Positions 26,051 through 45,145 of a stretch of 64,000 nt of DNA are shown here, one piece after another. The DNA is from a virus: the IMG/VR virus record IMGVR_UViG_3300010885_033832, positions 31,417 to 95,416 of that record. One strand, given 5' to 3'. Both the position numbers and the translations under genes were made by a program. The notes beneath the pieces are model-generated. The model was given only the letters and a program-made list of their open reading frames with translations. It was not told where the DNA came from and did no database searches. How positions within the stretch are numbered: the first letter of the stretch is position 1; each line of letters begins with the position of its first letter.

Positions 26051-26293
26051 CCCCCCATTGTACCGCGAGCGCCGGAGTCCCGTCAACGGCGCTCAGCGCC
26101 TCTCTGACGGCGTAACGCGTTCCGGCCACTACGACAGACGGCCTGCCGGAGTGACGCGTCTAACGACGGCGCAGAGCGTCGGCGAGCGCCTAACGGCGTC
26201 GGCGTCCGGCGTCCGCGATCGCAGCGCAACGGCGAGCGCCGACCAACGGCGAAACGCCCAACCGTTTCCACTCGGCTGGGCGTTTCGTCGGCG

Positions 26294-26509
26294 CTAGTTG
26301 TTCGGGTCGAATTCTTCGACGTGGCGGACGTTGCAGACTTCGCAGTCGTCGACGATGGCGAGCGCCTTACCGTCGGCGAAGTACTGGAACGTGGCGGGCT
26401 GGTTGTGGAGCGTGGTGTCGTCGTTGTCCCAGCCACAGGCTCGGAATCCAAACTCTCCCTCGTTCTCGGCGACGCACCCGTTTGGGTCGGTGTCGTAGTA
26501 TCCGCTCAT
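26294..26509 (-). CDS. Cassette gene, acidic Cys-containing 71 aa
   Basis: GAAAGGAAACACA-ATG; own promoter and terminator. Confidence 0.8.
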   Translation of the reverse strand: MSGYYDTDPNGCVAENEGEFGFRACGWDNDDTTLHNQPATFQYFADGKALAIVDDCEVCNVRHVEEFDPNN

Positions 26510-26721
26510 TGTGTTTCCTTTCGTCGCGGTCGGCGTTTCCTCCCGCGTAATCAGTCTATCGGCGGGCACCGACATGTAATAGCCTCCCCTCCCCGACTGT
26601 GGCCGGAATCAGGCCGGCCATCGATGGCCACAACGTCACGACGACGAGCGCCGAAGTCGCCGCGGACAGTCGACGCAGACGACGAAACGCCTACCCTTTC
26701 GGGTAGGCGTTTCGGAGGGAC

Positions 26722-26967
26722 TCACGCCTGAGGGTAGGCGCGAGTGGACAGGCTCTCGGTGCTCTGAGCGAGTCGGGCAAACGTCTTCGCGAGACGGTAC
26801 AGTGCGTCTCCGACGACGACGCGGACGCGGTACTCGGCGTCGACCTTCGGCGTGAAGGGGTAATCCTCCGTGATGGTCGCAACGATGTCGGCATAGCACG
26901 TCGCGCAGACTGCGTCGTACGCTCCGTCGGCGAAGTTGGCAGAGCAAAGGCGCTCGTCGTGGTACAT
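26722..26967 (-). CDS. Cassette gene, 81 aa
   Basis: GAAAGGA SD; cassette architecture. Confidence 0.8.
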   Translation of the reverse strand: MYHDERLCSANFADGAYDAVCATCYADIVATITEDYPFTPKVDAEYRVRVVVGDALYRLAKTFARLAQSTESLSTRAYPQA

Positions 26968-27114
26968 GGTCGATTCCTTTCGGTTGGGGAGGCGTGTTCC
27001 TCCGTGACTCCACTCTATTGGCGAGCGCCGACATGTAACGGTATCCCCTCCCCATCGGCGAGCGCCGCACAACGACAAACAGCCTCCCCGAAGGGAGGCT
27101 GTCGGTCGTCCAAG

Positions 27115-27309
27115 TCAGGCGAAGTCGGGGAGGTGATACTTTGCGGCGAGAGCGGATTCCATTGCTTGGAGCGAGGCGATGGACTCGGCGATGTGGTCGC
27201 GCATATCTCCGACCTCGTTCGCTTTCCACAGCACCATCGCGTCGGTGAGTGACGCGGCGGCGGCCGCGTAGTTTGACAGCACAGCGCTGTCGGTAGCGTC
27301 GTACAACAT
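27115..27309 (-). CDS. Cassette gene, helical 64 aa
   Basis: GAAGGAG SD; cassette architecture. Confidence 0.8.
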   Translation of the reverse strand: MLYDATDSAVLSNYAAAAASLTDAMVLWKANEVGDMRDHIAESIASLQAMESALAAKYHLPDFA

Positions 27310-27420
27310 GGTGACTCCTTCGATTCGGGAGGCGTGTTCCTCCGTGATATCAGACTACGGCACGGCACGGACAAACAACAACCTCCCCTCCCCGAATCGG
27401 GAGGAGAGGTTGTCGGCGCG

Positions 27421-27615
27421 TCAGAGGATTATCGGCTCAACGACTAGGCGCGTTTCGTTCAGCGCACCGCAACCGCACCGATACCATTGCGCGATTCGAC
27501 CATCGGTGCGCCAGATGATATGAATGGTCGGGTGTTCGTGACCGACTCGGCATCGTGGGCAACGGTGATTCAGCGGGGAACGGCGTTCCTCCGTCTGGAT
27601 GATATCGTCTAACAT
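27421..27615 (-). CDS. Cassette gene, zinc-ribbon 64 aa
   Basis: CPRC...CGCG; GAAAGGA SD. Confidence 0.75.
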   Translation of the reverse strand: MLDDIIQTEERRSPLNHRCPRCRVGHEHPTIHIIWRTDGRIAQWYRCGCGALNETRLVVEPIIL

Positions 27616-27712
27616 TCGGGATTCCTTTCGTTCGTGATTCCAGACTACGGCCGCAACGGCATAGACGGCGATAGCCCCCCTGACGGTGTGTCAGAGGGGC
27701 TACCGTATGGCG

Positions 27713-27949
27713 TTACGCTTGGCGAGCGTATCGGGCAACCGCATCGGCAATTCGCGTACCGATGTAGTCGGGCGTGAGCATCGAACGGCGAGGCGCGCGT
27801 GCTTGGGCGAACCGTCCAGAGGTGTTGCCGACCTCGTGAACGATGACAACATAATCGCTACGCGAGATGTTGCCGAGGTAGCGGAGTAGGTACTCCGCAC
27901 CCTCGTAGGTGAACGGCGTGAGGGTGCCGCGTTTGAGTGTGATGGACAT
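27713..27949 (-). CDS. Cassette gene, 78 aa
   Basis: AAAGGAGG SD. Confidence 0.8.
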   Translation of the reverse strand: MSITLKRGTLTPFTYEGAEYLLRYLGNISRSDYVVIVHEVGNTSGRFAQARAPRRSMLTPDYIGTRIADAVARYARQA

Positions 27950-28040
27950 TGTGTCCTCCTTTCGTTTTCAGACTACGGCATACCCCCGACACGAAACAAC
28001 CAACCCCCACCGCATAGGCGGTGAGGGTTGGCGTTTGGCG

Positions 28041-28271
28041 TTACCGCGAGCGCCGAAGACTACGGCGGTACACTTCTTCCCCGACATTCCAACTGAGTAG
28101 GGCAGAGGCGACAACGATACAACCGACAACCATAACGCGGTCGAATGTAGCGTTGTAGGACAGTCCCGACATCTCGGCGGAACGGGCGAGGCTATCGGCG
28201 GTAAGCGCGGTGACAACCGCAACCGCATACAGCCCCAGCGCCATAAGGGCGCGGAATCGACGAATGGACAT
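28041..28271 (-). CDS. Cassette gene, two-TM membrane protein
   Basis: GAAAGGAG SD; two hydrophobic segments. Confidence 0.75.
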   Translation of the reverse strand: MSIRRFRALMALGLYAVAVVTALTADSLARSAEMSGLSYNATFDRVMVVGCIVVASALLSWNVGEEVYRRSLRRSR

Positions 28272-28374
28272 TCCATTCTCCTTTCGTTGGTGATATCAGA
28301 TTACAACGGCGAGCGCCGAAACGGCAACAACCCCCCACCGCATAAGCGATAGGGGGTTGTCGGCGGCGACTACT

Positions 28375-28479
28375 TCATCGGTTGAAGACGAAGTCGAGGT
28401 CGTGCGTGTGGTACGCAATTCCCTCGGTGTCGCGAGTACCGCACTCGGGGCACGGGTCGGTGAGGTCACCAGTAGCCAT
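28375..28479 (-). CDS. Cassette microprotein, 34 aa (CPEC, HTH residues)
   Basis: AAGGAGG SD; cassette architecture. Confidence 0.65.
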   Translation of the reverse strand: MATGDLTDPCPECGTRDTEGIAYHTHDLDFVFNR

Positions 28480-28601
28480 AAGAGTCACCTCCTTGGGGCA
28501 ACGGCGTGGGGCGTGTCCCCCACGCCGACAACGATACGCGGCCCCACGCCGACAACGCAACAACCCCCCACGCCGATTGGCGTGAGGGGCTGTTGGTGGC
28601 G

Positions 28602-29003
28602 TTACTCGGCGGTGGCTTCGGCGGTAACGGGGGCGTTCGCGTTGGACACTACAACGCGCTTGGCTTCAGCGGTACACCAGAACAGGTCGTGACCGAGCGT
28701 TTCCGCTTCGATTTCGACATTCGTTCCCGTGCGGTCGTCGGTCTGCCAATCGCGAACGCGCAAGCGACCGACGACTACGATACGGTCGCCCTTGTTCAGC
28801 GACGCCATTGAGTTCACGGCGAGAGCGCGGAACGCCGTGACCGTGTACCAATTGGTCGAAGCGTCAAGCCACTTTTCAGTAGCCTTGTCGTATCGTCGCT
28901 GTGACGACGCGAGGCGGAATGAAGTGATGGGCAGACCTTCTGCCGTCACGATATGGCGTGGTGTCGTGGCGATAAGCCCCGTCACCGTGAGCGTGTCGCT
29001 CAT
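28602..29003 (-). CDS. ssb: Single-stranded DNA-binding protein (actinobacterial SsbB-like, no acidic tail)
   Basis: ITSFRLASSQRRYD...TNWYTVTAFRALA...LNKGDRIVVVGRLRVRDW...EIEAETLGHDL. Confidence 0.93.
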   Translation of the reverse strand: MSDTLTVTGLIATTPRHIVTAEGLPITSFRLASSQRRYDKATEKWLDASTNWYTVTAFRALAVNSMASLNKGDRIVVVGRLRVRDWQTDDRTGTNVEIEAETLGHDLFWCTAEAKRVVVSNANAPVTAEATAE

Positions 29004-29116
29004 GTGATTCTCCCTTGCTTGTGTGAGCCGTGTTGCCCACACCTCAACGATAGCGCGGCCACACCCGACAACGCAACAACCCCCCCACCGCATAAGCGAT
29101 AGGGGGTTGTCGGCGG

Positions 29117-29296
29117 TTAGACAGGTTCGTTGTTGATTGTTCCGTTGGCGCAGGCTTGGTTGTATTCCTCAACTAGTCGCGTTGCGTTGTCCACTACGAT
29201 AAAGTTCGCACCTACTCCCTCACCGAAGATACCCTCTTCGGTAATCGCGCGAGTGATGAGCGTGTGGGCTTGTTTCAGGATTTCGTAATCCGTCAT
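29117..29296 (-). CDS. Cassette gene, 59 aa (MTDYEILKQAH...)
   Basis: GAAAGGA SD; below the track length cutoff. Confidence 0.75.
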   Translation of the reverse strand: MTDYEILKQAHTLITRAITEEGIFGEGVGANFIVVDNATRLVEEYNQACANGTINNEPV

Positions 29297-29364
29297 TTCG
29301 TTCCTTTCGTTCGGTTGAGAGTGTAGCGCGCCACCGTGTTCCCAACGGTGGCGCGCCGTGTCAC

Positions 29365-29547
29365 CTATTCGGTGACGGTGGCGTTCGCCGTGTTATCGGC
29401 GTTAGCCGTAGAGAGCTTTTCGATTTGGGCGTTGATTTCGCCCAACCGCATAGCGTTCTCCACCATCAACTCTGCCACCGTGTTTCGCATTTCTTTTAGG
29501 GTGGCGATTGAGTTTTCCAGAAACTCAATCTGTTCTTGCTTGTCCAT
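29365..29547 (-). CDS. Cassette gene, coiled-coil 60 aa
   Basis: GAAAGG SD; heptad pattern. Confidence 0.75.
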   Translation of the reverse strand: MDKQEQIEFLENSIATLKEMRNTVAELMVENAMRLGEINAQIEKLSTANADNTANATVTE

Positions 29548-29655
29548 TGGACACCTTTCGATTAGCGGGGCGTGTTCCCCACATTCACAACGATACGCCG
29601 AACGCCGAACAAACGCCAACACCCCCCACCTTTCGGCGGGGGGTGTCGCGTTCCG

Positions 29656-29781
29656 TTATTTCAGTTTGTCCAAGATTGCCATTATCTCGGCGCGTTGTGC
29701 TTCGGGCAACGCTTCGATTCGTTCCGCAGCGTCGGGGACGAAAAGGCTATCCAAATCGTCGGGGTTAGTCCAGTCGAACAT
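29656..29781 (-). CDS. Cassette microprotein, 41 aa
   Basis: GAAAGGAAACA-ATG. Confidence 0.75.
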   Translation of the reverse strand: MFDWTNPDDLDSLFVPDAAERIEALPEAQRAEIMAILDKLK

Positions 29782-29886
29782 TGTTTCCTTTCGGGGGCGG
29801 TTCCCCCATACCGCAAAGGTAGCACCGGCATCGGCCAGAACGCAAACACCCCCCACACCGTTAGGCGTAGGGGGCGTTCGTTCGCG

Positions 29887-30069
29887 TTACTTGTTCTTGG
29901 ACTTGGTGAACGGTGAGTGGTTCATCGCGTAGATGTATTGGCGTTGACGGCGATTGAACCGTGGGCGGTGCTTGAGCAGATAGAACCAGTTGATCGTGAA
30001 TAGCGTGACGGCGATACCCGTCACGAAACTCGCGACAACCGTCACGATGAATATCGTGTCGTTGGACAT
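29887..30069 (-). CDS. Single-TM membrane protein, 60 aa
   Basis: N-terminal TM helix and basic tail; GAGGG SD. Confidence 0.7.
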   Translation of the reverse strand: MSNDTIFIVTVVASFVTGIAVTLFTINWFYLLKHRPRFNRRQRQYIYAMNHSPFTKSKNK

Positions 30070-30134
30070 TGTTTCCCTCTCGTGAGAGTTGGGAACGGTG
30101 TGACCCTCTCGCGAGAGCCACACCGTTCGATGGA

Positions 30135-30422
30135 CTAGGGGAGGCGAACCGAAGTCACCGAAGCGACATTGGTGAACTCGCCTTTGGATACCGCTTCCGC
30201 GATAGCAGGGTACGCCGAGAGAATGGATTTGGTGTCCGTTGTCTTGCGTTCGGTGACGGTTACGCGAGCGATTGTCTGCCCTTTGTATTCCACCGTTCCC
30301 TCGCCGACCGCGCCGATGATGAGCGCGCGGAGCGTTTCACTCTGCTTGGTGAGTGTGTCGATTTCCGCCTTGAGAGCGCGGAACTCGGCGACCGCGTCAG
30401 CGACCTTTTTGGTTACGACCAT
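30135..30422 (-). CDS. Coiled-coil/beta protein resembling the C-terminal part of YqaJ-type exonucleases or Gam-like proteins; paralog of 43441-43734
   Basis: KAEIDTLTKQSETLRALII...YKGQTIA...DTKSILSAYPAI. Confidence 0.65.
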   Translation of the reverse strand: MVVTKKVADAVAEFRALKAEIDTLTKQSETLRALIIGAVGEGTVEYKGQTIARVTVTERKTTDTKSILSAYPAIAEAVSKGEFTNVASVTSVRLP

Positions 30423-30534
30423 TGTCGTGTCCTTTCGTTGGGAGAGGGCGTGTCCCTCTCGTGATTCCACTCTACGCGGCCACACCCGACAAACGCAAAC
30501 ACCCCCCACCTTTCGGTGGAGGGTGTTCGTGGCG

Positions 30535-30789
30535 TTAGCCGATGTAGCGAGCGTAAACGGTAACGCGCTTACTGCGGTTGGAGTTCTTGCGCGAAGTCGC
30601 TTCAAACGACCCAGCAGGGGTGAATCCAATCAAGATACCTCGCTTGATTGACACCACATAACTTGCTGGTGCGTTGTCGCTAACGACGGCCCATTCTCCT
30701 GGATTTGCTTTGAGGGCTTTAGCAATCGCCCCGTACTTACCTGTTTGCACAGCGCGCTTCGGCGGTGCTTCCCAGCGGATTTTTACCAC
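30535..30789 (-). CDS. Conserved actinophage small protein (NPGEWA...VYARYIG)
   Basis: AAAGGAGA SD; motif familiar from actinophage hypotheticals. Confidence 0.8.
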   Translation of the reverse strand: MVKIRWEAPPKRAVQTGKYGAIAKALKANPGEWAVVSDNAPASYVVSIKRGILIGFTPAGSFEATSRKNSNRSKRVTVYARYIG

Positions 30790-30897
30790 GTCTCTCCTTT
30801 GCGAGGGGCGTGTCCCCTCTCGGTTCTACTTTACGACCAGAGCGAACACAACGCAAACAACCCCCCCACCCGATAGGGCAGGGGGGCGCGGTTGGGG

Positions 30898-30990
30898 CTA
30901 GTACCCGAACACCCACTCACCTTTGTGTTCGCAGGTGAAGAGCGCACCGCACTCGTCGCACGGCACTAGCACAATCTCTTCGTTGTCCAT
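30898..30990 (-). CDS. Cassette microprotein, 30 aa (CDEC..C.H)
   Basis: AAAGGAGA SD; own promoter and terminator. Confidence 0.65.
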   Translation of the reverse strand: MDNEEIVLVPCDECGALFTCEHKGEWVFGY

Positions 30991-31100
30991 CGGTTCTCCT
31001 TTGTTGGCAGGGCGTGTTCCCCACATCTCCACCGTACGCGATCGTGGGGCGAACCGACAAACACCCCCCACCCTTTCGGGTGAGGGGCGTTCGGTTCAGG

Positions 31101-31589
31101 CTACCAACTTGCTCGGTAGGTGAAGTCACAATCGGCGAGTGACTTGTTGGCGAGTATCTGCGAGAGTTCGTCACGAGTGGTTTCCAAGTCCTTCCAGTAC
31201 CACTCGTCAATCTCGGTCGAACCGAAGAAGAAGCCAGCCTGTGGTGGCAGGTGTTCTTCCGCGATTGCCGTTCGGTTTGCTTCGCTCGCGCCGAGAATGA
31301 TGTCGCACAGGTTTCGCAACGCTTCCAAGCCGTCACGCGGTACGCCGATTTCTTGGCACTCGTCAAGCCCATCAGCGAAGTTGCTCACGAACCATTGGTG
31401 AATGGCGTTCGCTTTCCGCCAATACATTACCGTCACAGCGAGGGTCGCAGACGGCGAGTATTCGGGCAGTATCGCAGGGTCGAACCCTGCCGTTTCCAGC
31501 ACACTCGCAAACTGCTCGCGGTCTGCTTCGGGTCGGTGTTCCCAACCCGATAGGTACTTCTCGGCAGATAGATACATATCCAGTCCCAT
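31101..31589 (-). CDS. Conserved phage protein (MGLDMY...YWRKANAIHQWF family)
   Basis: Recognisable widespread phage motif; AAAGGA SD. Confidence 0.85.
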   Translation of the reverse strand: MGLDMYLSAEKYLSGWEHRPEADREQFASVLETAGFDPAILPEYSPSATLAVTVMYWRKANAIHQWFVSNFADGLDECQEIGVPRDGLEALRNLCDIILGASEANRTAIAEEHLPPQAGFFFGSTEIDEWYWKDLETTRDELSQILANKSLADCDFTYRASW

Positions 31590-31698
31590 TATGTTTCCTT
31601 TGCTTGGTGTGAACCGTGTTGCTCACATTTCCAAACTACGGCACCGGCGGCCACAACGCAAACAACCCCCCACCGTGAGGTGAGGGGTTGCTCGGCGG

Positions 31699-31905
31699 TC
31701 ACTCGTATTGAGCGTGGATTACATCCCAGCAGGGGAAGCAGTACGGCTCTCCGTTGTCGCGGTGAGTTTTCTTACCACAGGCATCACAGGGAACTTTCCC
31801 CTCTCCACCGTCATAGCACGAATAGCAGGTGTAACCGTCTTCTTCGAGAATGTCCTCGTCGAGTTGGTCGCAGGTACAGGTCGGGTTGTTCGGGTTCTTT
31901 TTCAT
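31699..31905 (-). CDS. Cys-rich zinc-finger protein, 68 aa
   Basis: Four Cys pairs; TGATG coupling. Confidence 0.7.
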   Translation of the reverse strand: MKKNPNNPTCTCDQLDEDILEEDGYTCYSCYDGGEGKVPCDACGKKTHRDNGEPYCFPCWDVIHAQYE

Positions 31906-32033
31906 CAGTTCCCCTCGCAATCGTGTCCGTAGGACAGTTCCTGCTCGTCAACCTCGTTGGTCGGGTCGAACACTCGCGAGCATTCGACACACTTGAGCAG
32001 AAGTCCTGCTCGCGTAATGGTGAGTTCCATCAT
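31905..32033 (-). CDS. Zinc-finger microprotein, 42 aa (CVEC...GHDCE)
   Basis: GAAAGGA SD. Confidence 0.7.
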   Translation of the reverse strand: MMELTITRAGLLLKCVECSRVFDPTNEVDEQELSYGHDCEGN

Positions 32034-32096
32034 CTCGGTTCCTTTCAGGGGCGGTTCCCCTCTACTTCCAATCTACGCGATCGGGGCGCAAACGCA

Positions 32097-32191
32097 AAGT
32101 ACCCCCCGAGCGAAAGGGATAACTCTCGGGGGGCGTTTCTTTGTGTGTGGCGTTACCGTCAAGGGGTAAACACGATTCCCTGACAACCACT
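32097..32191 (-). ncRNA. Candidate ~95-nt sRNA filling a gene-less cassette
   Basis: TGnTAGCCT -10 at 32198-32203; no SD or ORF; hairpin with G.U pairs and loop AAUCGUGUUUAC; terminator 32100-32134. Confidence 0.6.
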
Positions 32192-32275
32192 CCGTCTAGG
32201 CTACCACACCGTGACGCGCGCAAAATACCAAAACAACGAACCCCCCTACCGAAGTAGAGGGGTTCGCGGTGACCG

Positions 32276-32590
32276 TCAGACGGTGAGGTTGCTTGCTTGG
32301 ATTTCAGCGAGCGAGCGCGGTTCCCAGTAGAGGTCGCGTTCGACCATCATTCCCATCGGACCGACCACGCCTGAGAGTTCCGAGAGCGAGAAGTATCCCA
32401 ACTCCATCTCGAAGCCGTTGACCAGACCGAAGAACTGGTCTTCGCCATCGAACTCGGTTGCGTACCAAGTCCAGTTCGCCCAGGGGGTGAAGTACTTGAC
32501 CGTAGCCATCGTTTCCTCAAGCGACTTGTTCTCGTTCGTGTAGAGCGGTGGAAGTGCTGCGCGCACCTCGTCGTTCATCAGTTCCATCAT
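32276..32590 (-). CDS. DUF2958-family protein
   Basis: LPPLY...VKYFTPWANWTWYATEFDGED.FFGLV.GFE.ELGYFSLSEL...GP.G..VERDLY. Confidence 0.88.
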   Translation of the reverse strand: MMELMNDEVRAALPPLYTNENKSLEETMATVKYFTPWANWTWYATEFDGEDQFFGLVNGFEMELGYFSLSELSGVVGPMGMMVERDLYWEPRSLAEIQASNLTV

Positions 32591-32692
32591 TTCCTTTCGG
32601 GGAGAGTGTTTCTCTCCACACTTCGACTCTACGCGCCGACCTCGCAAAACGCAAACAACCCCCCTACCGAAGTAGGGGGGCGTTCGGGGGGA

Positions 32693-32818
32693 CTAGTCCT
32701 CGTCGCGACAATCCCAGCAGAGCCAAGAACCGAGGTTGTCGAACGCGTCGATGGGGTCACCGTCGTCGTATGCGCCACATTCGTCGCACACTATTTCGGC
32801 ATAAGGACTGATAGCCAT
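32693..32818 (-). CDS. Acidic zinc-finger microprotein, 41 aa
   Basis: CDEC...CWDC; GAAAGGA SD. Confidence 0.75.
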   Translation of the reverse strand: MAISPYAEIVCDECGAYDDGDPIDAFDNLGSWLCWDCRDED

Positions 32819-33046
32819 TGTGTTCCTTTCGGGGGGAGCGTTTCTCCCCACGCTTCTACAATACGACTCCGGCATCCGTAACGCAACGAACCCCCACCCG
32901 AAGGTGGGGGACTCGTCAGCGGTCGCGGTACTGCCAGTAGGTGTATAGAGTCCCGACGATGAAAGCGATCACATTCGGGAGGACGATTAGAACGAATATC
33001 AGCACTGAAGAAAAAAGGGGGAGCAGTTTCCCACTCCCCCAACCGA

Positions 33047-33370
33047 CTAGGCGTTAGCAGTTTCGCGCACGTTGACAGGGAACCACTGGTCGGCAACGAC
33101 CTCAACGAACGTGCCAGACCCTTCATCGTGTTCCCAGTCGCGGACCGTGACCGAACCGATGACCGTGATGTGGTCACCTCGGCGAACCGTTGCGATGATG
33201 TCGTACGCCATTTGGTCGAACGCCGTGAACGTGTAGTAGTTCCACTGGTCACCGCGCTCGTCGCGCTTCGTGCTGATTCGGAATGACGTAATCGCCGTTC
33301 CCTCGCTGGTCACCACTTGGCGTGGTGTTGTGGCAACAAGTGCGTTGCCGAGAATAATCGTGTCCGACAT
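33047..33370 (-). CDS. ssb: Second, shorter SSB paralog (OB fold only)
   Basis: ATTPRQVVTSEG.AITSFRI...NYYTFTAFD.MA...GDHITVIGSVTVRDW. Confidence 0.85.
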   Translation of the reverse strand: MSDTIILGNALVATTPRQVVTSEGTAITSFRISTKRDERGDQWNYYTFTAFDQMAYDIIATVRRGDHITVIGSVTVRDWEHDEGSGTFVEVVADQWFPVNVRETANA

Positions 33371-33456
33371 TCTGTCCTTTCCTGTGGCAGGCGTTTCCTC
33401 CCACACTTTGACACTACGCGAAAAAGGGGAGAGGCGCGAGCCTCCCCCCTCCGACA

Positions 33457-33579
33457 CTACTTGTCGAATCGCCAATCCTCGTCTGTGTCGTAGACGGCTT
33501 CCTCGGTTTCGTCCTCTGGGTCGTCTGGCGGAGTGTAGTACGCCCGCTCCGCGCGACCCTGGTCGCTGAAATATCCCAT
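33457..33579 (-). CDS. Highly acidic microprotein, 40 aa (MGYFSDQG...DEDWRFDK)
   Basis: GAAAGGA SD; cassette architecture. Confidence 0.65.
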   Translation of the reverse strand: MGYFSDQGRAERAYYTPPDDPEDETEEAVYDTDEDWRFDK

Positions 33580-37938: not shown

Positions 37939-38108
37939 TACTCGCTCACCTGCTCGACAATGTTTTCCATTGTGAACTCGCCACCCTGAACAAAGAAGTC
38001 ATCCGAAATCATCTCGTCAAACATCTTTTCCGCTTCCTCGATACTGGCCGCTTCGACCGTGGCTTCGAGGTTCTTGATGAGTGTGGCGTATGCCGTGTAC
38101 TTTTTCAT
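37938..38108 (-). CDS. Small protein with VEAxSxEEA (DpnD/PcfM-like) motif
   Basis: 56 aa; GAAAGGA SD. Confidence 0.72.
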   Translation of the reverse strand: MKKYTAYATLIKNLEATVEAASIEEAEKMFDEMISDDFFVQGGEFTMENIVEQVSE

Positions 38109-38199
38109 TCTGTTCCTTTCCGATCGCGTGACCATCACCCGACCTGTTTCCAAACTACGGCAAAGAGGGAGGAGACGATAGTCTCCCCCCTCCTGTCCG

Positions 38200-38832
38200 T
38201 TACTTCGTGGCGAGTTCGATTGACTTGGGGCAATCGGCGTACCAGCATTCGGGGTCAGTCTCGACCTCGCAGTAGCACTCGCGGTCACGCTTCTGGTAGT
38301 CGGCGTGGCTGTTGGGGATGTCGTACTCCTCGTCCACGATTACCTCACCGTCCTTGAGCGTGAGTTCTCCACCCCAGCCCTGCTCCTCCTCGTACCACCA
38401 CGACATTTCGAGGTGCGGATACTGCTCGGCAAGGGCAGCGACCACGCCACGCGGATAATCCCACGGAGTCTGGAATGTGATTCGGATTTGGTTGTCCTCG
38501 TCCTCGAACTCGATGTCTCCGTCACCAGCGTCCCACTTACAACCCCAGTTGTCGGAGTTCCACGAGTACCAGTTGGTGTCGGTGTTCCCGACCTGCTCGC
38601 CGTTTACAACGCCCCTGCGACCAAAGTAATCGTCCAACTTGTCGGCTGGCGGAGCAATGATGTTCCAGAACGAGAAGCCACCCTCGTTCAGTTTGATTTC
38701 GCCTGTCGGCTCGAAGCCGTCATAGACCATTTCAGGTCGGGGCATTTCCATCTCGCGGAGGAACGATTGGAGTTCCATTTTGTCTCCGCTGGGCGCGGTG
38801 ACGGTCACGCTGTTGTAGACCCAGTTAGGCAT
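38200..38832 (-). CDS. YubB/DUF1281 ferredoxin-like-domain protein
   Basis: MPNWVYN...WYSWNSDNWGCKWD...FQTPWDYP...WYEEEQG. Confidence 0.82.
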   Translation of the reverse strand: MPNWVYNSVTVTAPSGDKMELQSFLREMEMPRPEMVYDGFEPTGEIKLNEGGFSFWNIIAPPADKLDDYFGRRGVVNGEQVGNTDTNWYSWNSDNWGCKWDAGDGDIEFEDEDNQIRITFQTPWDYPRGVVAALAEQYPHLEMSWWYEEEQGWGGELTLKDGEVIVDEEYDIPNSHADYQKRDRECYCEVETDPECWYADCPKSIELATK

Positions 38833-38918
38833 ACTGCTTCCTTTCATCGGGTAGCCAAGTGGCTACATTACAACAATAAACGAAACCCCCCTCCGAGTCA
38901 AGGGAGGGGGGTCGCGTT

Positions 38919-39209
38919 TTATCTGATGGGTTGTATTCGGTAAGCGACCTGTTCGCTCATCTTGGCAGCGAGGAACATCTTGTCGGTTACTTCGGGGAGA
39001 GGCTCGTCTCCCCACCAGTCCTGCTTGTCCACATCAAAGTAGTCGAGCAGGTAGGAGACCATTTCCTCGGAGTAGTCGGAGGTGTATAGCAGGCACTCCT
39101 TGGTGTCGGTCTTGGCGGTCAGGGGCGATTGGAAGAATCCACGCGCAATCCGATTCACATCAGATTCCCAGATTAGTTCCGCTTCGAGAGCGGTGGTTTC
39201 ACTCCACAT
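38919..39209 (-). CDS. Hypothetical protein, 96 aa
   Basis: GGAGG SD; overlaps upstream gene. Confidence 0.72.
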   Translation of the reverse strand: MWSETTALEAELIWESDVNRIARGFFQSPLTAKTDTKECLLYTSDYSEEMVSYLLDYFDVDKQDWWGDEPLPEVTDKMFLAAKMSEQVAYRIQPIR

Positions 39210-39345
39210 CAGTGACCTCCAAGAGCATTGTCTCGGTTTCGATTTCTTTGTACTCCCCCTGACCAATGAGGTTCTGCGCTTCTTCGAGCGTCTCGGCGAT
39301 GACCTCGACTCGTTCCCCTGTGAGGAATGTGTATGTCTTTGGCAT
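39199..39345 (-). CDS. Small protein with VIAETLEEA motif, 48 aa
   Basis: GAAAGGA SD; same motif as 37938-38108. Confidence 0.7.
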   Translation of the reverse strand: MPKTYTFLTGERVEVIAETLEEAQNLIGQGEYKEIETETMLLEVTDVE

Positions 39346-39434
39346 AATGTCCTTTCCGTGAGGAGACCGTCTCCCCACGCTTCCAAACTACACAACAAGA
39401 GGGAGGAGCACAATGCTCCCCCCTCCGTGTGTTG

Positions 39435-39815
39435 TTACTGTGGGCAGACCACCTTGACATTGGCGATGTGCTGGGCGAGAGCAGGTCGCTCGGAGTCCGA
39501 GGCTTCCTCAATCAAAGCCCAGTCGGCTTCATCCCAGTTACTGGTGTCCACCAGTTTGATTCCCTTGGCTACTCCGTACGAACCATCCTCGGCGAAGTAG
39601 GTCGTGGTAGCGACCGGCTGGGTCAGAGTGGCGAGTCGCTGGTTGATGATGTAGTCGAGTTGTTCTTCCTCGTCTCCATCAGGCCGCACCCATTCCTGCT
39701 CCTCGTCATCGAACCACGCCCGTTCGTGAAACTTGGCCATCAACGATTCATCGTCAAGCCAGAAGCCGTCATCGCTCGGATCGTAGTAGACCACGAAGTG
39801 GATTTGCTTGGTCAT
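39435..39815 (-). CDS. Acidic cassette protein, 126 aa
   Basis: GAAAGGA SD. Confidence 0.8.
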   Translation of the reverse strand: MTKQIHFVVYYDPSDDGFWLDDESLMAKFHERAWFDDEEQEWVRPDGDEEEQLDYIINQRLATLTQPVATTTYFAEDGSYGVAKGIKLVDTSNWDEADWALIEEASDSERPALAQHIANVKVVCPQ

Positions 39816-39905
39816 TCTGTTCCTTTCGGTTGGTGTGCCGGGTGGCACGATTCCATCGTACGCCGAAAAGGGAGGAGGCGTTAGCCTCCCCCCTCTCGGT
39901 GTGGG

Positions 39906-40607
39906 TTACTCCCGACCCAACATCTCGATAATGTCGGCAACGGAGGTAATCAGGTTCGCACCACGCTTGATGAGTTCGTGAGTGCCAGCGGAAGTTCCCG
40001 AAGTAATCGGGCCAGGAACTGCTCCGACCTTTGCTCGACGCTTTTTGAGCGCGTGTTTCGCGACGTTGATGGAGCCACTGCGGTAGCCAGCCTCGATAAC
40101 CACGACAGCAACCGAGAGGTTCGCCATCAACTTGCTCCGCTTCAAGAATCGTTCGCGAGTCGGAGCCGTTTTCGGAGGCGACTCCGAGAGCAGGAGTCCC
40201 GTCATCGCGACTCGGCGGAACAGTTCCGAGTGACCCGATGGGTACGCGGAGTCGAGTCCCCCAACAGCGACAACGATGGTGTTCCCACCACACGCCAGAG
40301 TGGCGCGAGTAGCCATTCCGTCAATGCCGTACGCTCCGCCAGTGATGGTGGTGTAGCCACGCGAGACGAGGCCAGCCGCGAAGTCCATCGCGACGTGTTC
40401 GCCGTAGCCCGTTGAGGCACGTGCGCCCGTGAGGGTCACGGCGTTGTTGAGGTCGGAGAGCAGGTCGAGGTTCCCCAAGTACCAGAGGTCGGGAGCCTTG
40501 TCACCAAGTCGCCTCTTGAGAAGCAGAGGGTATCGCTCGTCGGTGACGGGCAGGAACCCGATGACTTCGTGTGGGACTACGACGTTCTCTTGTTCGGTAT
40601 CTATCAT
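39906..40607 (-). CDS. dprA: DprA/Smf DNA-processing protein (Rossmann core only)
   Basis: GARASTGYG...TGGAYGID...GGLDSAYPSGH...SESPP...EAGYRSGS...VGAVPGPITS. Confidence 0.95.
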   Translation of the reverse strand: MIDTEQENVVVPHEVIGFLPVTDERYPLLLKRRLGDKAPDLWYLGNLDLLSDLNNAVTLTGARASTGYGEHVAMDFAAGLVSRGYTTITGGAYGIDGMATRATLACGGNTIVVAVGGLDSAYPSGHSELFRRVAMTGLLLSESPPKTAPTRERFLKRSKLMANLSVAVVVIEAGYRSGSINVAKHALKKRRAKVGAVPGPITSGTSAGTHELIKRGANLITSVADIIEMLGRE

Positions 40608-40692
40608 TGTGTTTCCTTTCGGTTGAGTGACGGGTGTCACAATTCCACATTACACAAGAAAAGAGGGGAGCGCAAGGCTCCCCTCCCTCTCG

Positions 40693-41415
40693 TTACTTCT
40701 TGCTGGCGGAGAATACGATGTCCGCCTTGTTGAATACGCACAGACCACAGCGTACGCAGGCACTACCCTCGTTGGAGATTAGGGGCAATGCTCCCTTGTT
40801 CTCTGGACACTTGGCACCGGGTCGGCCAGTAATCTGCTTGATTACCGATTGACCCTGCTCGAAGTTGTCCGCGAGATACGCGAGACGGATCCCATACTCC
40901 TCGCGGAGCGCGATCGCGGTGTCGAGGTTCGCGCTGTCCGCCGAGAAGTACAGCGACAGATTCGGAATGTCGCGGAGGATAATCGCGCTGTCCTCGGTTC
41001 GGGTGTAGACCCAAAACTGAACATCGGGATGATTCTCGACCACGCGCTTCCACGCGTAGGTGTAGGCGTCGTTAAAGAAATCGCCGTCCCAGTGGATACG
41101 GAACAGTTTGTCCGCGCCTCGCTTGTCGCTGTCCTTCTCAAAGTCCGTCACCATGCCGTCAAGCAGGGCGTACATCGTGTCGAGGTCAGCGTTGCGGAGC
41201 AGGTTCCAGTTGTGAACCAGCACCTCGCGTACTCCCTTGTAAATCTTTTCGAGCTTCCCGGCGTAGCAGATAATCTCGCAGACCGAGGTTGCTCCCGGGC
41301 AAGAGAATGGCTTCCCCGAGGGCAGACCGAATGTGTTGGCGATTGCTGGCGTCTTACCCGAGGGCATGACAGCGTTCGTCACCTTGCGGTCTTTAGAGCG
41401 TTTGAGCGTGTCCAT
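40693..41415 (-). CDS. GP88-family protein (mycobacteriophage gp88-like, Cys motif)
   Basis: FGLPSGKPFSCPGATSVCEIICYAG...FRIHWDGDFF...FWVYTR...CVRCGLC. Confidence 0.82.
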   Translation of the reverse strand: MDTLKRSKDRKVTNAVMPSGKTPAIANTFGLPSGKPFSCPGATSVCEIICYAGKLEKIYKGVREVLVHNWNLLRNADLDTMYALLDGMVTDFEKDSDKRGADKLFRIHWDGDFFNDAYTYAWKRVVENHPDVQFWVYTRTEDSAIILRDIPNLSLYFSADSANLDTAIALREEYGIRLAYLADNFEQGQSVIKQITGRPGAKCPENKGALPLISNEGSACVRCGLCVFNKADIVFSASKK

Positions 41416-41503
41416 AATGTCTCCTTTCGTTGGACAGTCTCAACGATACGCGGTGTAATAAAAAAGCGCAAGGAGGGGGTCTCCCCCCTCCCTGCGTTGT
41501 CGG

Positions 41504-42094
41504 TCAGTAGTGGAAGTCCACTGGCACGAGGAACCATTGGTCGGCACTCTCGCTGTCCTCCATGTCCTTGAGGAGGTAGCGCATTTCCGTGACACCGTTG
41601 GTGATGTCATAGAAGTAGGTGTCGGGCAACCAATACTCGGCAGCCATGCGCGAGAGATACCCGAACTGGTACATCGTTGAGAGCGGGTCGTACGGGAACT
41701 CGGTCGAATCACTCAGCGAGTACGCGAGGTACTCCTCAACCCGTTCCTCGAACGATTTCCCGTCCTGCTCGTTGCGGAGTTTGATTTCCTCGAGACGGCG
41801 ACGCATTTCGGTAGCGCGTGATTCGAGGCACTCGCGGATTGTCTTGGAGAACTTCTTGGGGTCTTCCGAGAAAGCGATCACATTCATCGTGTCGAACACA
41901 TAAGCGTCAGTGTTCTGGAAGAACCGACCACCACCGACAACGAACCAGTCGTACCAGTCCGCGTAAGGCCGCTCGTCTCCCGAGAGAGTGTTGTTGACCT
42001 CATGGGCCGCGCTCTCTTTGGCCTCGTCCATGTCAATGCCGTTCTCGCCAATGGTCTCGTTGCTCTTGACGGCAACCCAATGTAAAGTGTGCAT
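41504..42094 (-). CDS. Conserved phage protein (WYDWFVVGGGRF...VDFH)
   Basis: 196 aa; GAAAGGA SD. Confidence 0.8.
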   Translation of the reverse strand: MHTLHWVAVKSNETIGENGIDMDEAKESAAHEVNNTLSGDERPYADWYDWFVVGGGRFFQNTDAYVFDTMNVIAFSEDPKKFSKTIRECLESRATEMRRRLEEIKLRNEQDGKSFEERVEEYLAYSLSDSTEFPYDPLSTMYQFGYLSRMAAEYWLPDTYFYDITNGVTEMRYLLKDMEDSESADQWFLVPVDFHY

Positions 42095-42186
42095 GCTGTC
42101 TATCCTTTCCGTGGTCGGAGTTTCCGGCCACACTCTGACATTACACAAAGAAAGAGGAGGGCGCAAGCCCCCCTCCTCCTGTGTTG

Positions 42187-42609
42187 CTACGCCTCGAAGA
42201 CTACTCGACCCTCGTAGATTCCGTGCGGTGTCCACTTCCAAATCTCGCCGTCCTCGCCACGCCAGATGATGTAGCACGACACATCCACGAGGTCGCGAAT
42301 GGCGTTGATGAACTGTGACTCGTCACCAATCTTGCTGTCGTATCCGTGGACATTGAGACCGCCGTCCTCCTGAATCATGCAGTCGAACCCGAGGAGTTCG
42401 AGAACCTCCTGTGCCGAGGACACAGTCTGGTCGTAGTCGGTGGGCATCCACGAGAACCACTTCTCGTTCTCCTCACCACTTGACCATCGGCCTCCACCCT
42501 TGATTGCGTTCGGGTCGTGGTTGAGTGCCTTGAACCGCTCGAGAGCCTTGTCAAGGTTGTGTGCCGGAATCACAAAGTTCGATTCCTGAATGTTGATGTA
42601 GTAACCCAT
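42187..42609 (-). CDS. Conserved phage protein (MGY...WRGEDGEIW)
   Basis: 140 aa; GAAAGGA SD. Confidence 0.82.
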   Translation of the reverse strand: MGYYINIQESNFVIPAHNLDKALERFKALNHDPNAIKGGGRWSSGEENEKWFSWMPTDYDQTVSSAQEVLELLGFDCMIQEDGGLNVHGYDSKIGDESQFINAIRDLVDVSCYIIWRGEDGEIWKWTPHGIYEGRVVFEA

Positions 42610-42692
42610 CGGTTCCTTTCCGTGAGCAGACCTTGCTCACACTTTGAGTTTAGGACGGAAGCGAGGGGAGTGCAATGCACCCCCCTCCTCCG

Positions 42693-43070
42693 TTACTTGT
42701 GGACGCTCTCGTTCCCACAGCAGGAGCAGTAGGACTCGTGTTCGACATGGTCACAGCAGTCGTGCTTGTCCCATGTCCACTCCCCACCACCGATTGCGTA
42801 GACCCGAGTACCGTTCTTGTTCAGGTATCCCTGATACTCGATCCGTGCTTCGCTCGGGTCGCGGTCAGGCTCAACGACCCAGACTGTATCGGTCTGGGCG
42901 TTGTACCCAAACTGGTTGTAGTACTCACCAGCCATCAGCATTTGGAATACATCGTTGACCACTTGGGTCAGCGTGAACTCGGGGATGACCCATCCGTTCC
43001 ACTTCCGTGAAGCGAATGAGACACACTCCGAGGCTGGCAGGTGTTCGTTGACCACGGCGTAGTTGGTCAT
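42693..43070 (-). CDS. Hypothetical protein (WNGWVIPEFT...YAIGGGEWTW)
   Basis: 125 aa; TAATG coupling. Confidence 0.8.
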   Translation of the reverse strand: MTNYAVVNEHLPASECVSFASRKWNGWVIPEFTLTQVVNDVFQMLMAGEYYNQFGYNAQTDTVWVVEPDRDPSEARIEYQGYLNKNGTRVYAIGGGEWTWDKHDCCDHVEHESYCSCCGNESVHK

Positions 43071-43333
43071 TAGTACTGACCATCCACTTCGCTTGCCACC
43101 GCGATGAACGCGGGGTCGCTCGCCTTGCGGTCTGCCACGTACTGCTGGAACTCGAAGCGAACATCGAGTGCCTTGTTGATTTGGATGAACAGGTCGCGGA
43201 GTGCGTCTGCTCGCCCCGTGTGGTAGGCCGAGTCCTCGAGGTCACCAGTCTGCATGCTGTCACGCTCTGCCATCTGCCACTCCTCCTCGAGGTTCATGAG
43301 AATCCCCGGAACGGTATTCATTTGTGTCGACAT
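43070..43333 (-). CDS. Hypothetical protein, 87 aa
   Basis: GAAAGGAG SD. Confidence 0.78.
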   Translation of the reverse strand: MSTQMNTVPGILMNLEEEWQMAERDSMQTGDLEDSAYHTGRADALRDLFIQINKALDVRFEFQQYVADRKASDPAFIAVASEVDGQY

Positions 43334-43440
43334 CTCTGTCTCCTTTCGCGCCAGACTCTCTGGCTACCTCGAGCCTACGCTCATTACACAACAAATGCAA
43401 ACACCCCCCGCCGAAGCGAGGGGTGTCTGTTGGCGAAAGC

Positions 43441-43734
43441 CTACTGCTTGGCAGTGAGGATTTCGAGGCGGAGGGAGTGCGAGACCTTCTGAACCTTCTC
43501 GAAGATTGCAGGCCACTTCGCCTTGAGGAGGTCGCTGTCAACCAGAGTGCGCGGAACGCTCTTGGTCTTGGCAACTGCCTTGCCACGGTAGGTGGCTACC
43601 TCTGCCCCACCCATTGCATCGAGGATGCGAGTGCGGAGATCGGTGTCCTCCTTGTCGAGAGCGTTCTTCTGCTCCCGGACTTCAGCAAGTCGCTGAAGGT
43701 CGGCAACGATTGTGCCGGGTACGGATGTTTCCAT
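43441..43734 (-). CDS. Paralog of 30135-30422 (YqaJ C-terminal/Gam-like)
   Basis: EQKNALDKEDTDLRTRILDAMG...YRGKAVA...VDSDLLKAKWPAIF. Confidence 0.7.
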   Translation of the reverse strand: METSVPGTIVADLQRLAEVREQKNALDKEDTDLRTRILDAMGGAEVATYRGKAVAKTKSVPRTLVDSDLLKAKWPAIFEKVQKVSHSLRLEILTAKQ

Positions 43735-43828
43735 CGTGTCTATCCTTTCGTGACCCTACTTGGTTTCGGGTACAGTTCCACTGTACGCGAAACGACCCCC
43801 CCTCGCAAGTAGGGGGGGTCTGATTCGG

Positions 43829-44332
43829 CTAGAAGCCAGTGAGTTCGGCTTCGAGGTTCTCGATGTCGATGTTGAAGTGAGCGTCATTGATGTGCTCAAT
43901 CACATCTCCGAGGAGCGTGCGCTCGTTCTCTTGGAGTCCGTCTTTTTCCAACTGGAGGTTGACGTACCCGGCGAGGTCTTCGAGGTTCTGGTGTAGGTAC
44001 GAGATGGTCTCGAGAAACACAGTCGAGTGCTCGGGGTCAGGGAAGAACGTCTTGACGAGTTGCTCGACCTGAAGTCCGATTGCGAATCGCATGAGCGAGA
44101 TCGGGTTGTCGTACTCCGAGAAGTCGCGTTCCTCCATCTCCTCGTGCGTAACCACCGGGTATTCGAACTCGGTGTAGAGGGCGAACAGGTCATGGTTCGA
44201 CCAGTTGCGGAGTTCGTCCGCAATGAGTTGCAGCAGGAGGTTACCCTCGAAGGTCTGGCCAGCTTTTTCCTTGGCCTCCTTGCGCTTGATGACTGTGTCC
44301 ATCAGGGCGGAGGAGTGGTGCGTTCCTTGCAT
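43829..44332 (-). CDS. Acidic helical protein, 167 aa
   Basis: GAAAGGA SD. Confidence 0.78.
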   Translation of the reverse strand: MQGTHHSSALMDTVIKRKEAKEKAGQTFEGNLLLQLIADELRNWSNHDLFALYTEFEYPVVTHEEMEERDFSEYDNPISLMRFAIGLQVEQLVKTFFPDPEHSTVFLETISYLHQNLEDLAGYVNLQLEKDGLQENERTLLGDVIEHINDAHFNIDIENLEAELTGF

Positions 44333-44427
44333 AATGATTCCTTTCAGGTTGTAGGTGGATGTCACCCAATATCAATTTACAGAAAAGACCCCCCGAAGTC
44401 AAGCCGGGGGGCCCCTCTGTGTCAAGA

Positions 44428-44760
44428 CTATCCGTAGATGATGTCTCCGTAGACTGCGACCTGCAAAATTCCGCTCGAGGTGCAGAGGTCTTGGTCTTGC
44501 CAATCCCAACCACCCGAGCAGTGGCTGTAGTTCTTGTCGAGGCAGAACTGGTATGCCTTGAGCAAGTCCTCGATACCGAGTTCCTTGCGGACTTTCAATC
44601 CCTCGTTCTCAGGATCCTCGCCCGCGATTGTGAAGCGACCGAGTTTTTCCCAGGTGGCGTCTCCGTGATACTTGATGGTGACCCAGCAGGAGTCGAATTC
44701 CCATCCGCCTCCCATCGTCTCAGACCAGAAGTCCTCGTACTCGTCTTGTGTGATTTCCAT
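44428..44760 (-). CDS. Conserved phage protein (C-terminal ILQVAVYGDIIYG)
   Basis: 110 aa; widespread C-terminal motif. Confidence 0.8.
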   Translation of the reverse strand: MEITQDEYEDFWSETMGGGWEFDSCWVTIKYHGDATWEKLGRFTIAGEDPENEGLKVRKELGIEDLLKAYQFCLDKNYSHCSGGWDWQDQDLCTSSGILQVAVYGDIIYG

Positions 44761-45047
44761 TAGTTGTCCTCTCCGAACAGTCGCTGGCGTGCCGTCTTGG
44801 AACTGGCATCGCTGATGGGAACGTATGACCCGACAAAGCCGAATCCTCCGCCGTTGCCTTCCTCGTCCTTGGACAGGATAAAGAAAGTGTTGTCGTTGAA
44901 CAGGAACACGGGGGAGTGGTCGTAATCGCCCCACATGAAGTCCTCGCGTTCTTGAGCAGTGAGGTCGCGCACACCGATGATGGTTTTGTTCATCAGCGTT
45001 GCGAACTCGGTTTTGTAGAACTCGGTATAGCGTTCAGTGTCTGACAT
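44760..45047 (-). CDS. Conserved phage protein (SKDEEGNGGG motif)
   Basis: 95 aa; GAAAGGAAACACC-ATG; first cassette of the array. Confidence 0.8.
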   Translation of the reverse strand: MSDTERYTEFYKTEFATLMNKTIIGVRDLTAQEREDFMWGDYDHSPVFLFNDNTFFILSKDEEGNGGGFGFVGSYVPISDASSKTARQRLFGEDN

Positions 45048-45145
45048 GGTGTTTCCTTTCGAGGGCGTCTCCCTCCTATTACCAACATAAAGGAACCCCC
45101 TACCTGGTGTCAAGTAGGGGGTCCCCGTTGCGCGTCGTTCGGCTT

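Follow-up and report, generated by a model that had tools for sequence, protein, structure and literature searches.

Small-gene cassettes joined by shared predicted terminator-promoter modules form a variable region, probably a PeSL analogue, in a freshwater actinobacterial siphovirus

The DNA of an uncultured virus analysed here raises the question of how dozens of small genes can stand side by side in a phage genome, each seemingly with expression signals of its own, and whether these signals also serve as joints at which the genes are exchanged. The whole stretch that was analysed ("the window") comprises 64,000 nt, bases 31417-95416 of a 95,416-nt virus contig in IMG/VR (IMGVR_UViG_3300010885_033832) with a CheckV completeness estimate of 56%. 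Parts of this contig occur in sequencing runs of at least 20 studies, nearly all labelled as freshwater or lake metagenomes, which points to a freshwater origin. Between its genes for an endolysin and the large terminase (TerL), the window carries an array of small co-oriented genes with a G + C content of about 57%. The TerL shares 67% identity with its counterpart in DSL-LC01, an Actinomycetia phage from Dishui Lake. Identities are 55-59% to the TerLs of five Microbacterium phages of approximately 190 kb (Cece, Big4, Zooman, Pumpernickel and A3Wally) and about 45% to those of phages of the Gordonia GMA2 and Arthrobacter Mimi types. The tape measure and major tail protein genes of DSL-LC01 identify the group as siphoviral. 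Our analyses indicate that the array is probably an insulated-cassette hyperplastic region of a lytic-type actinobacterial siphovirus, and that its cassettes are shuffled through shared modules in the manner of the promoter-early stem-loop (PeSL) elements of T4-type phages.

Gene calling guided by Shine-Dalgarno (SD) sequences placed 47 genes between the endolysin and the large terminase, from position 45047 down to 26294 on the minus strand, with products of 30-240 aa (median 95 aa). Nine of them overlap, or are translationally coupled to, the preceding gene. They are distributed over 35 gene-bearing promoter units, to which one gene-less unit is added (Table 1); this count includes three further promoters at 28271, 27949 and 27615 in the half of the array nearer to the terminase (the proximal half).

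The spacers between these genes are built from the same short elements. With 1.13 occurrences expected in the window, the SD motif GAAAGGA followed after 3-9 nt by ATG was found 33 times, and every copy is on the minus strand between 23.2 and 45.1 kb; in the entire 95-kb contig, GAAAGGA itself occurs 33 times on the array strand, all within the array region, and twice on the opposite strand. For the exact pattern TTGCGT-N16-18-TANNNT, 10 matches stand against an expectation of 0.60, and every one is a minus-strand site between 28.5 and 35.3 kb. With a looser -35 box (TTGCGN or TTGACN), 29 intergenic spacers contain this box, a spacer of 16-18 nt (mostly 17 nt) and TANNNT; in these spacers, the distance from the end of the -10 box to the ATG is nearly constant at 32-46 nt, within a full range of 20-51 nt. 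When 33 modules were aligned, the consensus ran from cgCGTAnnnTgGAAnTGTG through a hairpin to CACCGAAAGGAAnCAnnATG, the T, A and T of TANNNT being invariant and flanked by g before and gg after.

The modules also contain predicted RNA structures. Among the 41 spacers of at least 40 nt, all but one open, within 0-10 nt of the stop codon, with a hairpin whose folding energy is -20 to -36 kcal/mol, and all 40 of these hairpins are stronger than any found in 60 same-strand coding control segments (mean -12.4, best -19.4 kcal/mol). A consensus terminator scan likewise returned 44 terminator-like sites against 18.3 +/- 4.2 expected. A second, leader hairpin was detected in 30 of 32 modules (dG of -5 kcal/mol or lower, mean -10.2 kcal/mol, mean z -2.2); it starts 5-8 nt after the -10 box, i.e., at or beside the expected 5' end of the transcript. 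RNAalifold predicted zero pairs on the MAFFT alignment of the 33 modules because the module hairpins do not align by sequence, and the leader hairpins were measured module by module rather than from the alignment; a test of own-arm against cross-arm pairing was partly circular and is descriptive only.

Two types of module can be distinguished. In type A, which occupies the distal half of the array, the -35 box (TTGCGN, TTGACN or TTGCAC, e.g., TTGCGC, TTGACC or TTGACT) lies in the loop of the terminator hairpin, and the 3' arm of the hairpin together with the T-tract forms a 17-nt spacer that is followed by TANNNT (examples at 42186-42095, 38918-38833 and 35721-35630). With the -35 box in the loop and the arm and T-tract serving as spacer, signals for termination and initiation are thus superimposed within approximately 50 nt. 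In type B, the hairpin is followed by TGTTTGCGTT, with the -35 box just past the stem, and after 16-18 nt by cGTAGnnTGGAA. The leader hairpins of the proximal half all carry the loop RAAC(A)CG, while the loops of the distal half are variable. In the four promoters nearest to the terminase, the TTG -35 box is replaced by the arrangement TGTCSG-N10-TANNNT, which occurs five times in the window against 0.65 expected. These promoters, which cluster by the terminase and are also present on cassettes specific to a close relative (see below), resemble the actinobacterial RecA-NDp/PafBC type.

A first-pass annotation made from the sequence alone had described about 48 small co-oriented genes in some 35 cassettes, with TTGCGT-N16-18-TANNNT promoters and GAAAGGA SD sites, and the gene calls and motif counts bear this out. 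Its statement that each unit has a terminator, a promoter, a leader hairpin and an SD is slightly too broad: four spacers possess a hairpin and an SD without a promoter (37220-37167, 34882-34825, 30134-30070 and 29364-29297), the longest unit holds four genes behind one promoter, three proximal modules lack the leader hairpin, one module (37457) lacks TANNNT, and one cassette (32275-32090) is devoid of a gene.

Comparison with relatives, designated G001 to G006, supports the view that the modules are both constrained and placed where genes are exchanged. The TerL of G001 is 99% identical to that of the window, and G001 has homologs for 38 of the 47 cargo genes. Identity between the two is 0.90 in the spacers and 0.89, 0.92 and 0.80 at the first, second and third codon positions, respectively; as the spacers are better conserved than third positions, the modules must be constrained, about as much as non-synonymous sites. 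The two genomes also differ by insertions or deletions (indels) of whole genes whose borders coincide precisely with start codons. At 43065 the difference is a 63-aa gene flanked by two coupled genes, at 39816 it is a small gene inserted or deleted in the gap from an SD to an ATG, and at 38108, 31905 and 39209 it concerns genes of 56, 68 and 96 aa, respectively. In one place a whole 96-nt regulatory module of the window is absent from G001, in which translational coupling joins the two neighbouring genes. Identity is 62-73% in a diverged segment at 39816-38935 and 94-99% in the modules on either side of it, and the region from 29.3 to 26.1 kb is largely replaced in G001, whose specific genes are framed by the same module type, AACACG leader loops included.

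Lake metagenome contigs matched to the array provided a view of variants within natural populations. In run X4, one contig of 2474 nt is contiguous across a 421-nt deletion (35674 to 35252) from which exactly one cassette is gone, and the crossover lies inside the GCGTA of two neighbouring -10 regions. Two further X4 joints skip two genes with one module, and two cassettes (Table 1); for both, intervening letters between the two sides are possible, and the larger, 1197-nt joint is weaker, with just 21 nt on one side, yet the X4 depth falls over the same cassettes. In run X9, one joint (31004 to 29309) falls within the SD region and another (27339 to 26987) within the leader hairpin, and there is also a backward joint (31057 to 29848) that is not interpretable from contigs as an excised circle. 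A 5001-nt joint (31066 to 26064, with 20 nt on one side) and other short-sided joints were treated as unreliable. The crossovers and breakpoints thus lie in four sub-elements, namely the -10 box, the SD, the G-run of the hairpin and the leader hairpin, and this spread argues for recombination on short homology and against a site-specific enzyme.

Among more distant relatives the layout is retained while the genes turn over. G006 (TerL 71% identical) has 14 homologs of array genes, all co-oriented and located between endolysin and TerL; numbered by their order in the window, they follow the order 8, 1, 5, 6, 12, 3, 2, 4, 11, 7, 9, 13, 10, 14, so that one of 13 adjacencies is kept. Its promoter, gACTTGACAa-N17-gCTAtAcT (TTGACA-N17-TAtAcT), often has the -35 box in a hairpin loop, as in type A of the window. 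Homologs of the 47 cargo genes numbered two in G002, six in G004 (86% complete) and two in the complete DSL-LC01 genome, and none was found in G003, in G005 or in positions 1-25000 of the Cece record, whereas conservation among relatives is 40-70% for TerL, the portal and the AAA/vWA pair. The relatives with these counts of zero to six have TerL identities of 55-70%. The endolysin-array-TerL layout is retained in DSL-LC01, G002 and G004. In DSL-LC01 the endolysin is followed by about 50 small co-oriented genes and then TerL, and most of the small genes are preceded by a GC hairpin, GATTCTAAAGATGTTATAATAGAATCA (an extended -10 with palindromic flanks) and ACGACGAAAGGACAA-ATG; in G002, ccTGATATAATtatcc is repeated 13 times ahead of similar SDs; and in Cece, terS and the endolysin gene are followed by about 38 small forward genes, which a reversed block separates from terL. 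Within positions 9600-30000 of DSL-LC01, an inverted repeat GATTCT...AGAATC surrounds the extended -10 of the array promoter, and a repressor common to the entire array may use it as its operator. The pair of genes for an AAA_5 ATPase and a vWA/CobT-like protein (19698-22576, minus strand) stands after the terminase in the window and within, or at the head of, the small-gene array in DSL-LC01, G002, G004 and G006; larger blocks therefore also move around the array.

PeSLs, the closest known system, consist of a stem-loop, often of polyG/polyC, beside a sigma-70-type early promoter, an SD and an ATG; they are dense in the hyperplastic regions of T4-type phages (RB49/phi1, T4/PST and KVP40/nt-1), their promoter and terminator activities have been measured, excised mini-circles have been detected, and their crossovers map to the stem region or to the stretch from -10 box to ATG (PMC2839356, PMC4122927). 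The window modules are of the same kind: terminator-promoter composites between stop and start, with a G-run/C-run stem-loop upstream of or overlapping a host-type promoter (40 of 41 hairpins, 29 promoters) and with the SD and start codon of the downstream gene as their 3' end. As with PeSLs, they are concentrated in a hyperplastic region of mostly unknown small genes or ORFans, close relatives differ by insertion, deletion and replacement of cassettes, with crossovers inside the elements though with some indels at start codons, and the promoter consensus is lineage-specific. The phage, however, is an actinobacterial siphovirus unrelated to T4, with GC-rich actinobacterial promoters (TTGCGT, TANNNT); in half of the modules the -35 box lies within the terminator loop and not after it; a 5' leader hairpin with a conserved loop is added, and the AT-rich upstream element of PeSLs is absent. 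Moreover, mini-circles and promoter and terminator activity have been demonstrated for PeSLs, whereas the activities of the present modules are predicted from sequence. As its relatives are siphoviruses and not T4-type myoviruses, the array should be regarded as a PeSL analogue rather than as a member of the T4 lineage. None of the ten best-ranked papers of a full-text literature search on PeSL and actinophages contains the word PeSL, a result that does not extend to the text of the DSL-LC01 paper (PMC10611076).

The analogy to T4-type PeSLs that the first-pass annotation drew is therefore supported by both architecture and crossover positions. Its further proposal, reshuffling without an integrase, is supported by the whole-cassette deletions, by the crossovers in four sub-elements and by the gain, loss, replacement and reordering of cassettes among relatives, whose gene order is not invariant. 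Breakpoints within modules, which it also expected, were seen in the lake variants, while several others fall at start codons of coupled genes.

Other known systems resemble the array in part. The host-takeover module of SPO1 and the pre-early/early regions of T5 also comprise about two dozen small genes in many short operons with strong host-type early promoters and terminators, but they are located in terminal repeats or at the first-injected end, unlike the present array between endolysin and large terminase, and their host shut-off functions are reported to have been shown experimentally (for SPO1, by Stewart et al. in 1998). The start-associated sequences (SAS) and their extended form (ESAS) of cluster K mycobacteriophages are present at 10-20 scattered sites, and an imperfect inverted repeat with a variable spacer precedes roughly every second SAS (PMC3203893). 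They too are one-stranded actinophage repeats before start codons that include the ribosome site and are conserved with the gene family; they are not described as promoter/terminator composites, and the likeness is limited to the SD-plus-inverted-repeat part (PMC3203893). In the window, by contrast, the inverted repeat is the leader hairpin between the -10 box and the SD of a full terminator-promoter module. The corresponding genome region of DSL-LC01 (OQ999401) and the five Microbacterium phages has the same layout, with TerL identities of 55-67%. DSL-LC01 likewise possesses repeated modules of promoter and ACGACGAAAGGAC SD after GC hairpins; it differs in its extended -10, TGTTATAAT, with palindromic flanks, and only 0-2 of the 47 cargo genes have counterparts in DSL-LC01 and the Microbacterium group.

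From these data we propose how the modules may work. Read as RNA, the GC hairpin and T-rich tract would end the upstream transcript; read as DNA, the same module would supply a sigma-A-type promoter of the host (-35 TTGCGT or TTGACN, 17-18 nt, gTAnnnTgg) from which transcription of the following unit starts. The leader stem-loop about 5-8 nt after the -10 box would most likely be a 5'-terminal stabiliser, and in the proximal half possibly a recognition site too, and the extended actinobacterial SD (cGAAAGGAa) would follow 4-9 nt before the ATG. TANNNT is the -10 element of sigma-A promoters in Corynebacterium glutamicum and mycobacteria, and a -10 with G before and GG after, a weak or variable -35 and an extended SD fit actinobacterial housekeeping promoters and ribosome sites. 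The host-type, sigma-A-like character of the promoters is what suggests early expression. Since all cassettes carry the same short conserved sub-elements in the same order, recombination between modules would work in register. Homologous recombination of this kind would delete cassettes in the natural variants, and insertion, replacement and movement of cassettes may proceed by the same means, leaving the neighbours undisturbed and requiring no site-specific recombinase. The in-register junction from -10 to -10 in X4 is as module-mediated recombination predicts and supports it, as do the SD-to-SD breakpoints if that skip is clean.

Several observations weigh against this proposal. The T-tracts after the hairpins are short and interrupted, and read-through is therefore likely. 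The contigs of a metatranscriptome run (X24), 180-480 nt in length and within single cassettes, are uninformative on transcript starts and ends and may contain carried-over DNA, and they were not used as support. Several indel breakpoints are at the start codons of coupled genes, outside the modules, and since under any mechanism selection would retain only breakpoints at the borders of genes, their location alone is no proof. In addition, identical stretches between modules measure 5-20 nt, and recombination on very short homology is therefore needed, while the host and phage recombination genes are not on this 56%-complete contig.

The weak T-tracts and the four promoter-less spacers, one of which (30134-30070) is spanned by an RNA contig, would also fit an array transcribed as a few long operons, in which the hairpins are elements of RNA processing or stability (3' protection or RNase sites), the TANNNT boxes are mostly weak or silent, and the modules chiefly govern mRNA stability and translation; SAS/ESAS, as start-associated actinophage repeats with inverted repeats that are not promoters, offer a precedent. 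We consider such an organization unlikely. It has to reckon with -35 and -10 boxes at the canonical 17-18 nt in 29 modules and with an exact pattern found 10 times against 0.6 expected, and relatives keep TTGACA-N17-TAtAcT (G006) or an extended -10, TGnTATAAT (DSL-LC01 and G002), at the same place; it is also weak evidence in the same direction that no RNA contig spans a promoter-bearing module.

A different question is which apparatus reads the promoters. The lineage-specific long promoter words, GATTCT...AGAATC in DSL-LC01 and GGAA/TGTG after the -10 in the window, exceed what sigma-A needs, which could reflect a phage-modified or phage-encoded transcription apparatus, and the RecA-NDp/PafBC-type arrangement of the four terminase-proximal promoters, with its excess of five sites over 0.65, could likewise reflect a host stress regulator acting on the proximal class; the array would then be middle-phase or conditional and not immediate-early. 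This seems improbable to us, as the core hexamers and their spacing are those of a housekeeping sigma factor, and the window, from a contig that is only about 56% complete, showed no gene for a sigma factor or an RNA polymerase.

It is very improbable that the modules are selfish mobile elements (MITE-like, i.e., of the miniature inverted-repeat transposable element kind, or homing-associated) that spread through the spacers and look regulatory only secondarily: although one module is present or absent alone between two genes and the modules form repeat families of 60-90% identity, they are strictly strand-specific, always occupy the space from a stop codon to a start codon, keep SD and ATG at a constant distance, lack both terminal inverted repeats and target duplications, are accompanied by no transposase or homing nuclease in the array, and recombine at four internal positions, which fits homology and not a defined element end. 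Integron-like site-specific recombination was rejected, there being no integrase and crossovers at four module positions, and so were prophage morons, in view of 36 tandem units between packaging genes with no integrase or repressor seen in the window.

Within the cassette reading preferred here, the gene-less unit deserves attention. CGUGUU, contained in its hairpin loop, is complementary to the AACACG loops found on leader hairpins of the proximal half, and G001 has an identical copy of its first hairpin over some 64 nt, while the fold z is only -1.7; the unit is a candidate small RNA. A speculative and rather doubtful extension is that the array is co-regulated by its own RNA, the CGUGUU loop kissing the RAAC(A)CG leader loops of about 15 proximal cassettes and switching the set off or on together, and that the -35 box in the terminator loop couples termination to the next initiation.

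Table 1. Positions of the array, its modules and variants, cargo genes with recognised similarity, and flanking genes in the window
Feature	Position	Strand	Remarks
Array	26294..45126	minus	47 co-oriented small genes; 35 gene-bearing promoter units and one gene-less unit
Type A modules, distal half	33371..45126	minus	Purine-run/pyrimidine-run terminator hairpin with -35 in loop
Type B modules, proximal half	26510..33683	minus	Hairpin ACCCCCC...GGGGGGT; examples 32692-32588, 30534-30423
Leader hairpins with conserved RAAC(A)CG loop	26525..35664	minus	About 17 modules; stems differ
TGTCSG-N10-TANNNT sites	26553-26574, 27012-27033, 27352-27373, 27970-27991, 33619-33640	minus	
Longest unit	33684..35209	minus	Four genes (108, 91 HTH_3, 136, 135 aa), one promoter; internal promoter-less hairpin 34882-34825
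Gene-less cassette	32090..32275	minus	Terminator, TGn-TAGCCT -10-like box, about 100 nt with hairpin, terminator
Module absent from G001	39436-39341	minus	Whole 96-nt regulatory module; flanking genes coupled in G001
One cassette deleted	35252..35674	minus	X4; 106-aa gene and half of each neighbour module
Two genes and one module skipped (651 nt)	37459..38111	minus	X4; breakpoints within the SD stretch GAAAGGAA(A)CA of both modules involved
Two cassettes skipped (1197 nt)	41482..42680	minus	X4; breakpoints in GGAGGGGGG arm of two terminator hairpins
97-aa protein	43441..43734	minus	PHROGs; like C-terminal part of RecE-like phrog_434
GP88-family protein, 240 aa	40693..41415	minus	Pfam; more than 590 relatives in viral contigs
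DprA-like protein, 233 aa	39906..40607	minus	Pfam
Api92-like DUF1281_C domain protein, 210 aa	38200..38832	minus	Pfam
HTH_3 protein, 91 aa	start 34824, within unit 33684..35209	minus	Pfam
SSB-fold protein, 107 aa (second)	33370-33047	minus	Pfam
DUF2958 protein, 103 aa	32276..32587	minus	Pfam
SSB-fold protein, 133 aa	28602..29003	minus	Pfam
Upstream flank, 308-aa protein	47472-46546	minus	Weak similarity to terminase small subunit of Microbacterium phage Cece
Upstream flank, endolysin	46459-45641	minus	
Downstream flank	23469..26086	minus	Promoter, four tightly packed genes and large terminase

Concentrating on the cargo, 30 proteins were scanned against Pfam and 20 against PHROGs. Apart from the similarities listed in Table 1, PHROGs returned families of unknown function only, and most of the cargo has no recognised function. 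The 97-aa protein resembling the C-terminal part of the RecE-like family has a paralog at 30422-30135 and a third copy in G001. The GP88-family protein and a 162-aa protein are found in hundreds of viral contigs with G + C contents of 34-58% and with other neighbours; their genes are adjacent in 21 of 80 loci and 10 kb apart in the window, which also speaks for shuffling. None of the scanned proteins matched an established anti-defence family, and a literature search on DUF2958 and DUF1281 in leading regions returned nothing relevant. The early anti-host and anti-defence role that the first-pass annotation assigned to the cargo thus finds no direct support in these hits and is a plausible hypothesis.

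Downstream of the array, positions 26050-26086 (minus strand) carry TTGACG-18-TACAAT, the best sigma-70-like promoter of the region, which is 97% conserved in G001 and ends 6 nt before the ATG; at this distance the transcript looks leaderless. Behind this promoter of a putatively leaderless transcript, an operon of tightly packed genes extends into the large terminase gene (24887-23469, minus strand). The terminase of G001 (L020) contains an in-frame insertion of about 372 aa (848-aa open frame) at the equivalent of window position 24707, which is probably an intein and is lacking from the window terminase; the Cece and Big4 terminases likewise match in two pieces.

No tRNA gene was found in the window, and megablast returned no match for the array in a set of 50,697 phage records. 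The RecA-like, nuclease, helicase and polymerase genes of DSL-LC01 were searched for on this contig and none was found; the replication module lies outside this 56%-complete contig. A giant open reading frame (ORF) of 4438 aa, downstream of the portal, occupies window positions 1-13285 (minus strand) and continues into the contig (genome 44701-31385), and a 3290-aa ORF stands at the matching position in DSL-LC01. On the opposite strand, positions 59976-63338 encode the large subunit of a ribonucleotide reductase that is split by an intein with a LAGLIDADG domain.

Shuffling cassettes are already known as the PeSLs of T4-type phages; what differs here is the clade, that of actinobacterial siphoviruses, together with the superimposed -35 box and terminator and the leader hairpin. 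The cassette deletion junctions in the lake metagenomes are direct population-level evidence of shuffling. For Actinobacteria, the array also offers a compact collection of candidate parts of natural origin, namely promoters, terminators, 5' leaders and SD sites, and its approximately 50 insulated and rapidly exchanged genes are a place to look for host-interaction functions in these actinophages. Our analyses indicate that the PeSL principle, in which shared regulatory joints insulate small genes and act as recombination points, is not peculiar to T4-type phages, and it appears to shape a large and widespread clade of freshwater and soil actinophages with GC-rich actinobacterial signals.

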